Sequence record: PQ666541
DNA length: 64,000 bases
DNA from: Shigella phage sb3
Reading direction: 5' to 3' (one strand)
Shown here: positions 735 through 1,391 of the stretch, in pieces
Numbering within the stretch: the first letter of the stretch is position 1
Layout: each line of letters opens with the position of its first letter
The notes under the pieces: model-generated
What the model was told of the DNA's origin: nothing
The model's database searches: none
The model's input: only the letters and a program-made list of their open reading frames with translations
Position numbers and translations under genes: made by a program

Positions 735-740
735 TTGATT

Positions 741-1391
741 ATGGGGCTTCGGCCCCTATTCTCGAGGAAACAAGTGATTATTTCTAAGTTTGTTAAAGTG
801 AAAATTGTACCATCAAATTTTAAACATTATCAATCAAAGGGTTATAAATTAACACCTCTTGGAGCGGTTAAACATGGATTTAGGTATTATGAAATTGATG
901 TTAAAGTTGAAGACATTAAAGGTAGTACCGCGTATGTAAAATGCCGTTGCGATAAATGTGGAATTGAATATAACCAACGCATTGGAAGAAACACTGATAT
1001 TTGTCGTGATTGCCGTCATAAAGATAAAATGCGCAATAATTCATATGGTTCCGCGAATAAAGGAAAAACAGTAGAATGTATGCATGGCGTAAATCATCCA
1101 AGATGGAACCCAAATAAATCTGAAATGCGTGAATATATTTCATTGGTATATAAAGAAACTCGTAAGCATAAGAAAATTTGGTCAAAATGGCCAAATGCTG
1201 ATAAAATAGGAGTGTGCGGTACAAAAGGTGCTTACCAACTTGATCATAAGGTATCTATCAAATACGGTTTTGATAATTTAATTCCTGCTGAAATAATTGG
1301 CGGTATTAATAATTTAGAAATAATCACTTGGGAATCTAACCGAGAAAAGTCAAAAAGAAATAGTGTAGATCTTTGGGATTTACTAGAATGA
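741..1391 (+). CDS. Putative freestanding HNH homing endonuclease (Mob/Seg-like) between genes 18 and 19
   Basis: ORF 735..1391; N-terminal Cys pairs (CRCDKC...CRDCRHK) and a C-terminal LDHK...N...N HNH-like motif. Start is ambiguous: TTG 735, ATG 741 or GTG 772. A GGGGC-TTCG-GCCCC hairpin sits over the start. Confidence 0.6.
   Translation: MGLRPLFSRKQVIISKFVKVKIVPSNFKHYQSKGYKLTPLGAVKHGFRYYEIDVKVEDIKGSTAYVKCRCDKCGIEYNQRIGRNTDICRDCRHKDKMRNNSYGSANKGKTVECMHGVNHPRWNPNKSEMREYISLVYKETRKHKKIWSKWPNADKIGVCGTKGAYQLDHKVSIKYGFDNLIPAEIIGGINNLEIITWESNREKSKRNSVDLWDLLE
743..756 (+). terminator. GC-rich tetraloop hairpin GGGGC-TTCG-GCCCC just after the gene 18 stop
   Basis: Perfect 5-bp stem with TTCG loop read directly; could terminate or stabilise the gene 18 transcript and sequester the endonuclease start. 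Confidence 0.5.

Follow-up and report, generated by a model that had tools for sequence, protein, structure and literature searches.

The spacer between the tail sheath gene (gene 18) and the tail tube gene (gene 19) of Shigella phage sb3 probably carries a freestanding homing endonuclease gene, occupying positions 736–1390 of the sequence analyzed. That sequence, a stretch of 64,000 nucleotides (record PQ666541) referred to here as the window, is a segment of a T4-like (Tequatrovirus) genome whose closest record is Shigella phage pSs-1 (96.3% identity across 24 kb). Judged from its sequence, the encoded protein probably belongs to an uncharacterized HNH-like family. The initial annotation of this DNA had proposed a freestanding HNH homing endonuclease, and this proposal stood in part: the insert is optional, precise, sporadic and less diverged than its flanks, and its motif is invariant, but no HNH match was obtained by profile.

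A precise, optional insert in the gene 18/19 spacer

The open reading frame (ORF) that the initial annotation had placed between genes 18 and 19 is present and is flanked by Pfam matches to sheath and tube proteins (Table 1). The upstream ORF (219..734) matched Phage_sheath_1C (E = 2.7e-24), and protein identity to T4 was 99.4% over the C terminus of gp18 and 98.8% for gp19. Genes 18 and 19 are adjacent in T4, as the initial annotation had stated, being separated by an ORF-free spacer of 116 nt. Comparison of this junction across T-even genomes, one of the checks proposed at the outset, showed a presence/absence polymorphism in the form of a precise indel, with T4 in the empty state. The empty junction of T4 and five other loci aligned as TAAT-ACGGTGC-ATTCTAAAGG, where the window has TAAT-(655 nt)-ATTCTAAAGG; over a longer span, GGTTAAT-ACGGTGC-ATTCTAAAGGCCTG in T4 and the five empty loci corresponded to GGTTAAT-(736..1390)-ATTCTAAAGGCCTG in the window. 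The left edge of the insert thus lies one base past the gene 18 stop and the right edge within the insert's own TGA, and the inserted sequence brings with it a hairpin and a Shine-Dalgarno sequence as well as the ORF through to its stop codon. On the 3′ side of the insert, the native hairpin, both late promoters and the gene 19 ribosome-binding site are those of T4. The native hairpin is identical between T4 and every Tequatrovirus locus aligned, the two TATAAATA late promoters (upstream of gene 19 and 3′ of the inserted ORF) are common to T4, and the region downstream of the insert is nearly invariant across the Tequatrovirus loci aligned.

Table 1. Features of the gene 18/19 region (window positions unless another sequence is named)
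Feature	Position	Strand	Description and basis
Gene 18 (tail sheath), 3′ end	1..734	+	Host flank, outside the insert; stop TAA 732-734
Open reading frame	735..1391	+	218 codons from TTG 735, 216 from ATG 741
Insert relative to T4	736..1390	+	655 nt in place of the 7 nt ACGGTGC of T4; alignment
Insert-borne hairpin GGGGC-UUCG-GCCCC	743..756	+	9 nt past the gene 18 stop; sequence, RNA fold
Shine-Dalgarno-like GAGGA	764..768	+	5 nt upstream of GTG 774; sequence
Likely coding sequence	774..1391	+	205 aa, GTG start, TGA stop 1389-1391
Zinc-ribbon/treble-clef-like CxxC...CxxC	948..1013	+	C59, C62, C77 and C80 of the 205-aa protein
Predicted beta-beta-alpha-metal nuclease core	1230..1349	+	D157 (1242-1244), H158 (1245-1247), N180 (1311-1313), N189 (1338-1340), K192
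Native gene 18/19 hairpin GGCCUGU-UUCG-GCAGGCC	1399..1416	+	Untouched by the insert; fold
Two T4 late-promoter motifs TATAAATA	1418-1425, 1477-1484	+	Pattern search; alignment
Gene 19 (tail tube)	1499..1990	+	Host flank, outside the insert; Pfam Phage_T4_gp19, E = 2.6e-15
Chimeric-allele ORF region	Escherichia phage 121/2022-2B (L002) 1040-1645		Corresponds to window 794-1170

Start codon and expression signals

From its sequence context, the coding sequence likely starts at GTG 774 and not at TTG 735 or ATG 741, both of which overlap the UUCG hairpin. This assignment (774..1391) was made because the N termini of homologues in the family alignment nearly all read M/V-I-I-S/T-K, matching GTG 774; because GAGGA precedes this codon; because it is the start annotated in the records of RB3, HY03 and W143; because the homologue in Klebsiella phage Roth16 has an equivalent GTG start despite unrelated upstream sequence; and because residue 14 of the long ORF is where the PHROG 5104 alignment begins. 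Some GenBank records annotate ATG 741 as the start, the codon that the buried start of the initial annotation would match.

The GC hairpin that had been noticed right after the gene 18 stop exists. The start codon had been described as buried in it, in the manner of the hairpin-masked ribosome-binding sites of T4 homing endonuclease genes, and this part of the initial annotation was not supported: the likely, family-conserved start (18 nt downstream of the stem) and the GAGGA both lie downstream of the stem, the predicted extended stem covers only two bases of the Shine-Dalgarno sequence, the fold energy of the hairpin region was no better than that of shuffles (z = −0.08), and no late promoter lies between hairpin and start. 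The idea of a masked ribosome-binding site was therefore rejected. A pattern search running from gene 18 through the hairpin to the start of the ORF found no late promoter, and a search of the plus strand near 700–773 found no sigma-70-like promoter, so that a promoter belonging to the ORF itself was rejected for this interval. Stable hairpins between the sheath stop and the start of the homologue were predicted in 12 of the 12 loci folded. Intercistronic UUCG hairpins occur in T4, and by analogy with these we infer that the hairpin at 743–756 acts chiefly at the 3′ end of the gene 18 transcript.

Late-promoter motifs were seen at other homologues of the gene. In Acinetobacter phage Acj61 (2158–2215), TATAAATA lies in the 5′ arm and loop of a hairpin upstream of the homologue, a layout classically tied to hairpin-controlled late translation in T4, and in the metagenomic contigs L021 and L022 (positions ∼2975–3000) TATAAATA stands directly 5′ of the homologue's ATG; the T-even allele has neither arrangement. 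The window as a whole holds 18 copies of TATAAATA (8.6 ± 3 expected from shuffles), the majority of them just 5′ of ORF starts.

Protein architecture and the HNH assignment

The C-terminal domain of the protein is plausibly a divergent HNH-type (“DH-N-N”) nuclease domain, a reading taken from the invariant sequence motif, the structural model, the relatives with HNH_4, NUMOD3 or McrA affinities and the alignment with Cas9. An HNH-like motif near the C terminus had been pointed out initially, and it was confirmed as D-H...N...N, conserved family-wide. In an alignment of 75 diverse homologues, D157, H158, N180 and N189 were the sole invariant residues, the zinc-ribbon cysteines C59, C62, C77 and C80 being invariant or nearly so; the same four residues were also invariant in a 38-sequence core alignment, with a spacing of 9 between N180 and N189. 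The protein thereby has the motif expected of the HNH superfamily (a His general base ending strand 1, often with Asp before it, a structural Asn and, about nine residues on in the helix, an Asn or His as metal ligand). The cysteine pairs had likewise been noticed, as lying near the N terminus; the CxxC...CxxC arrangement is indeed conserved but begins roughly a third of the protein's length from that end. The cysteines fall in the N-terminal domain (residues 1 to about 85), a beta/zinc-ribbon domain that presumably recognizes DNA.

AlphaFold modeled the full-length protein with a pLDDT of 83 and the C-terminal domain with a pLDDT of 87.5 and a pTM of 0.75. In the model, D157-H158 ends the strand 154–158, N180 precedes the strand 181–185 and N189 lies within the helix 186–192, and the C-terminal motif is predicted to form a beta-beta-alpha arrangement. 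The best fold matches were HNH endonucleases, the nearest being the small phage and bacterial HNH nickases Gme HNH (PDB 4h9d) and Geobacillus phage GVE2 HNH (PDB 5h0o), both described as nicking enzymes, although the modeled similarity to them is a weak match. A Foldseek search against the PDB returned no match.

Searches of Pfam and NCBIfam gave no HNH family for this protein at E ≤ 1, and the only strong match was PHROG 5104 (E = 3e-91), which is labeled “unknown function”. PDB searches by sequence (phmmer) and by profile (hmmsearch with two family profiles) returned zinc-ribbon-like noise and no nuclease. The initial annotation had itself named the lack of an HNH domain on profile search as something that would refute its reading, and this is what Pfam, NCBIfam, PHROGs and the PDB returned. 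Weak profile matches were to zinc-ribbon proteins and to mS66/DUF4379, and when distant family members were scanned with Pfam, the matches were mostly zinc-ribbon noise, DUF4379, DUF7487 and NUMOD3. Sub-threshold matches to Pfam HNH_4 were found in 3 of the 75 relatives (best E = 3.5e-4) and NUMOD3 in one relative, and a core-domain search recovered NUMOD3-bearing members as well as three proteins named McrA by JGI. When the family was aligned by hhalign with the HNH domain of SpCas9 (a query sequence verified against the PDB), D157/H158, N180 and N189 aligned with D839/H840, N854 and N863; with a more diverse core alignment, the score was 21.1, against 10.4 ± 2.05 (maximum 19.2) over 300 shuffles. 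The HNH assignment is thus below the usual thresholds, the motif being present, the fold agreeing weakly and curated profiles giving no match.

Comparison with known nucleases

In sequence, the motif is closest to the Cas9/HNH_4 type (PF13395), sharing with it the D-H of strand 1, the structural Asn, an Asn nine residues on and an R-x-K (in the context NREKS in the sb3 protein and NRGKS in SpCas9). It differs from HNH_4 in falling under the Pfam threshold, and from the HNH domain of Cas9 in an insertion of ∼8 residues, modeled as two short helices, that separates strand 1 from the structural Asn. Moreover, the sb3 protein stands alone as a small phage protein bearing a zinc ribbon and does not form part of an RNA-guided enzyme.

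Among T4 proteins, MobA to MobE are freestanding HNH homing endonucleases, of which MobE is the characterized one (PMC2790892). The sb3 gene is like the mob genes in being a freestanding ORF in a spacer between conserved T-even genes, in its sporadic occurrence and in its predicted HNH-type site, and by analogy the same mechanism would be expected, with an insert-free genome being cut and then repaired from the donor. However, there is no detectable sequence relationship, and the sb3 protein falls in a separate PHROG. Furthermore, MobB and MobC have a classical HH...N...H at the N terminus followed by C-terminal DNA-binding repeats, whereas the sb3 protein has its DH...N...N at the C terminus behind an N-terminal zinc ribbon, a reversed domain order. 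Searching six-frame ORFs from T4 1–50000 (which holds mobB and mobC) and 100500–125000 with family profiles A2, A3 and A6 (hmmsearch) gave noise only (E ≥ 0.02 in this small set). A relationship to T4 MobB and MobC was consequently rejected, as nothing was detected by the family profiles and the motif type also differs. SegD and SegE of T4 are freestanding homing endonucleases with the same lifestyle and from the same genomic region, but the catalytic fold of Seg proteins is GIY-YIG, to which the sb3 protein had no match in Pfam or PHROGs. The two families that had been suggested for comparison, Mob and Seg, therefore do not accommodate it.

Occurrence among T4-like phages and a chimeric allele

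The distribution of the insert among T4-like phages is sporadic. The ORF was covered in 118 of the 700 phage records matching window positions 1–2100, and most of the remaining records have the empty, T4-type site. The allele of the window is found in 47 T4-like GenBank records (39 of them at an identity of at least 99%), and about 71 T4-like records, including those of phages 121/2022-2B, PP01 and ECML-134, have a chimeric allele whose N-terminal half is unlike that of the window. Compared with the window, the chimeric allele is nearly identical over 701–793 (the leader and first codons) and 83–100% identical, mostly 93% or more, over 1171–1499, and has only about 45% nucleotide identity over 794–1170. 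The two alleles have insertion site, leader and nuclease core in common and differ in their N-terminal halves. The swapped half is presumably the DNA-binding part, and the chimeric allele resembles a naturally occurring exchange of DNA-binding domains.

Annotation of the gene is uneven. The ORF was left unannotated in RB5, RB6, RB7, RB9 and RB10, and products in relatives are named “hypothetical protein” almost everywhere, with “holin”, “gp67” and “putative head morphogenesis protein” also in use; one record has “homing endonuclease”, and a few Klebsiella records have “type II restriction endonuclease”. Two records under other host names were also encountered: “Staphylococcus phage SAJK-IND” (MG010123.1, 32 kb) contains T4-like sequence and is 98% identical to the window in the 18–19 region, and “Pseudomonas phage vB_PSGBLB0006” (PV654520.1) also holds T4-like sequence. 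Both are probably mislabeled or contaminated.

Lateral spread and selection

Comparison with insert-bearing relatives gave the signature of a recent lateral spread of the insert, independent of its flanks. When phages sb1 and HY03 are compared with the window, 0 of 657 insert sites differ, against 13 and 31 of 734 sites, respectively, in the gene 18 segment and 13–17 of 492 sites in gene 19; the flanks differ by 2–4% where the insert is identical. Across seven insert-bearing phages, mean pairwise divergence was 1.6% for the insert, 3.4% for gene 18 and 3.1% for gene 19, and the tract of identity ends 31–88 nt upstream of the insertion point. Such low insert divergence and sporadic presence are the signatures expected of homing with short-tract gene conversion, short of proof that a nuclease drove the spread, and the low divergence could also stem from ordinary recombination without nuclease drive. 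The ORF is a functional gene under purifying selection, with a dN/dS of about 0.12 and, relative to W143, 14 synonymous and 8 nonsynonymous codon changes.

No flanking single-nucleotide polymorphism separated insert-bearing from empty genomes among nine loci, the flanks being mosaic in both classes, and a cleavage or immunity site within gene 18 or 19 was set aside for want of a candidate polymorphism in these nine loci. Optional endonuclease genes are reciprocally distributed between T4 and the window, since T4 carries segD in its 23/24 spacer and segE in its inh/uvsW spacer and the window has neither, the corresponding spacers being 83 nt (7393–7475) and 50 nt (12493–12542). Elsewhere in the window, the ORF at the hoc position (10384–11802, minus strand) encodes 472 aa (376 aa in T4).

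Wider family and genomic position

Searched by profile, a set of 1.84 billion representative proteins yielded 6295 relatives at E ≤ 1e-3. Homologues at 34–65% identity sit immediately 3′ of the sheath gene in several phages, namely Klebsiella phage Roth16, five metagenomic viral contigs (L020 to L024), Escherichia phage VR7 (where the product is annotated “gp19.1, similar to T6 gp19.1”), Acinetobacter phage Acj61, Aeromonas phage AS-zj, Vibrio phage VmeM-32 and Sinorhizobium phage phiM12, in which the gene that follows lacks a tail tube annotation. The post-sheath position thus recurs in several subfamilies of Straboviridae, spanning Tevenvirinae, Twarogvirinae and Emmerichvirinae as well as a Sinorhizobium Emdodecavirus; Gaprivervirus is also represented. 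Within one group of loci, L014 has the gene and its close relatives L013 and L015 are without it, and the insertion point inside the spacer of L014 differs from that in T-even phages. Homologue identity was not proportional to flank identity: the sheath C terminus was 81–84% identical where the homologue was 60–65% or 35–39% identical.

Distant proteins with the same core and several zinc ribbons were found after the major capsid gene. On one metagenomic phage contig (L026, 2524–3739), a distant DH-N-N member with multiple zinc ribbons follows the capsid gene and is itself followed directly by a Pfam HNH_3 endonuclease, which gives this post-capsid site the look of an endonuclease-gene hot spot.

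A literature search found no publication describing the gene. It is not mentioned in a review of T4 mobile elements (PMC2988022), and although “other HNH” genes of T2 and T6 are tallied in PMC2993671 (Table 5), the 18/19 locus is not described there. Searching for “gp19.1” returned only papers titled on other phages (e.g., SPP1), and no paper was found that pairs “DUF4379” with “HNH”.

Alternative explanations

We regard it as unlikely that the gene is an old, vertically inherited resident, an accessory nuclease that is often lost and does not promote its own copying but benefits the phage in some other way, such as an attack on the DNA of competitors or of the host, or the nicking of phage DNA. 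The recurrence of the post-sheath position in all four of the groups named above would suit such a resident, as would purifying selection (dN/dS of about 0.12) and the nicking activity described for its structurally closest counterparts, Gme HNH and GVE2 HNH; yet close relatives differ in presence or absence through a clean indel, phages with flanks 2–4% apart carry the same insert sequence, and homologue identity does not follow flank identity. In addition, the insertion point in the spacer varies between genera, which suggests repeated insertion.

A role as a zinc-ribbon, nucleic-acid-binding regulator, for example of late transcripts or of sheath and tube expression, would make the HNH-like motif noncatalytic and might explain why no curated nuclease model is matched, why sequence-level matches are only to zinc-ribbon proteins and why RNA hairpins lie on both sides of the gene. 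This is highly improbable, however, as the residues that are invariant in 75 homologues are of catalytic type (D-H, N, N, with N-x8-N) and not surface or structural ones. Besides, the gene is dispensable for tail gene expression, because most Tequatrovirus records are without it. That the ORF arose by chance or is a decayed, functionless relic is barely conceivable: it is mostly annotated as hypothetical, or left unannotated (RB5 to RB10), and annotators are split over its start codon, but its conservation (6295 representative relatives at E ≤ 1e-3, PHROG 5104 at E = 3e-91 and a dN/dS of about 0.12) refutes this idea for practical purposes, and the structure model is confident (pLDDT 83–87).

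Proposed mechanism of homing

For the preferred reading, a freestanding homing endonuclease gene, we infer the activity as a nuclease, the place of the target, the immunity of the donor and the time of expression as follows. The gene would be expressed late, by read-through of gene 18 transcription beyond the UUCG hairpin, because no promoter of its own lies between gene 18 and its start. In the protein, D157 and N189 would hold a metal ion, H158 would act as the general base and N180 would give the fold support, while the zinc-ribbon domain would bind a site at or near the empty 18/19 junction. During coinfection with an empty-site relative, the enzyme would nick or cut the relative's genome near this junction, and T4-type recombinational repair would copy the insert and short flanks from the donor genome. 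The donor itself would be immune, its site (ACGGTGC of T4 and its context) being replaced or disrupted by the insert. Our guess is that the target spans the insertion point, a placement favored because no marker polymorphism was found in gene 18 or 19 among nine loci.

A broader proposal, possible but doubtful, is that the protein belongs to a very large nuclease clade missed by domain databases, combining a treble-clef zinc ribbon with DH-N-N and apparently specialized for the post-sheath spacer across T4-like phages. The two T-even alleles might then be specificity-switched rivals at one site, as their leader and core are common and their N-terminal halves unrelated, or the protein might be a nickase acting in phage-phage exclusion rather than in classical double-strand-break homing.

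Significance

The T-even phages are the classic model of intronless homing. If the homing endonuclease reading is true, the gene would add no new biological principle, since selfish elements of this kind are well known and it would be a further example, but it would give the T-even system a new and experimentally tractable family of homing endonucleases at a locus that is empty in T4. The three allelic states of this locus (empty, window and chimeric) would constitute a natural experiment on change of target specificity and on competition. Since the family is large and its members are mostly named “hypothetical protein”, a curated profile would improve the annotation of phage genomes.
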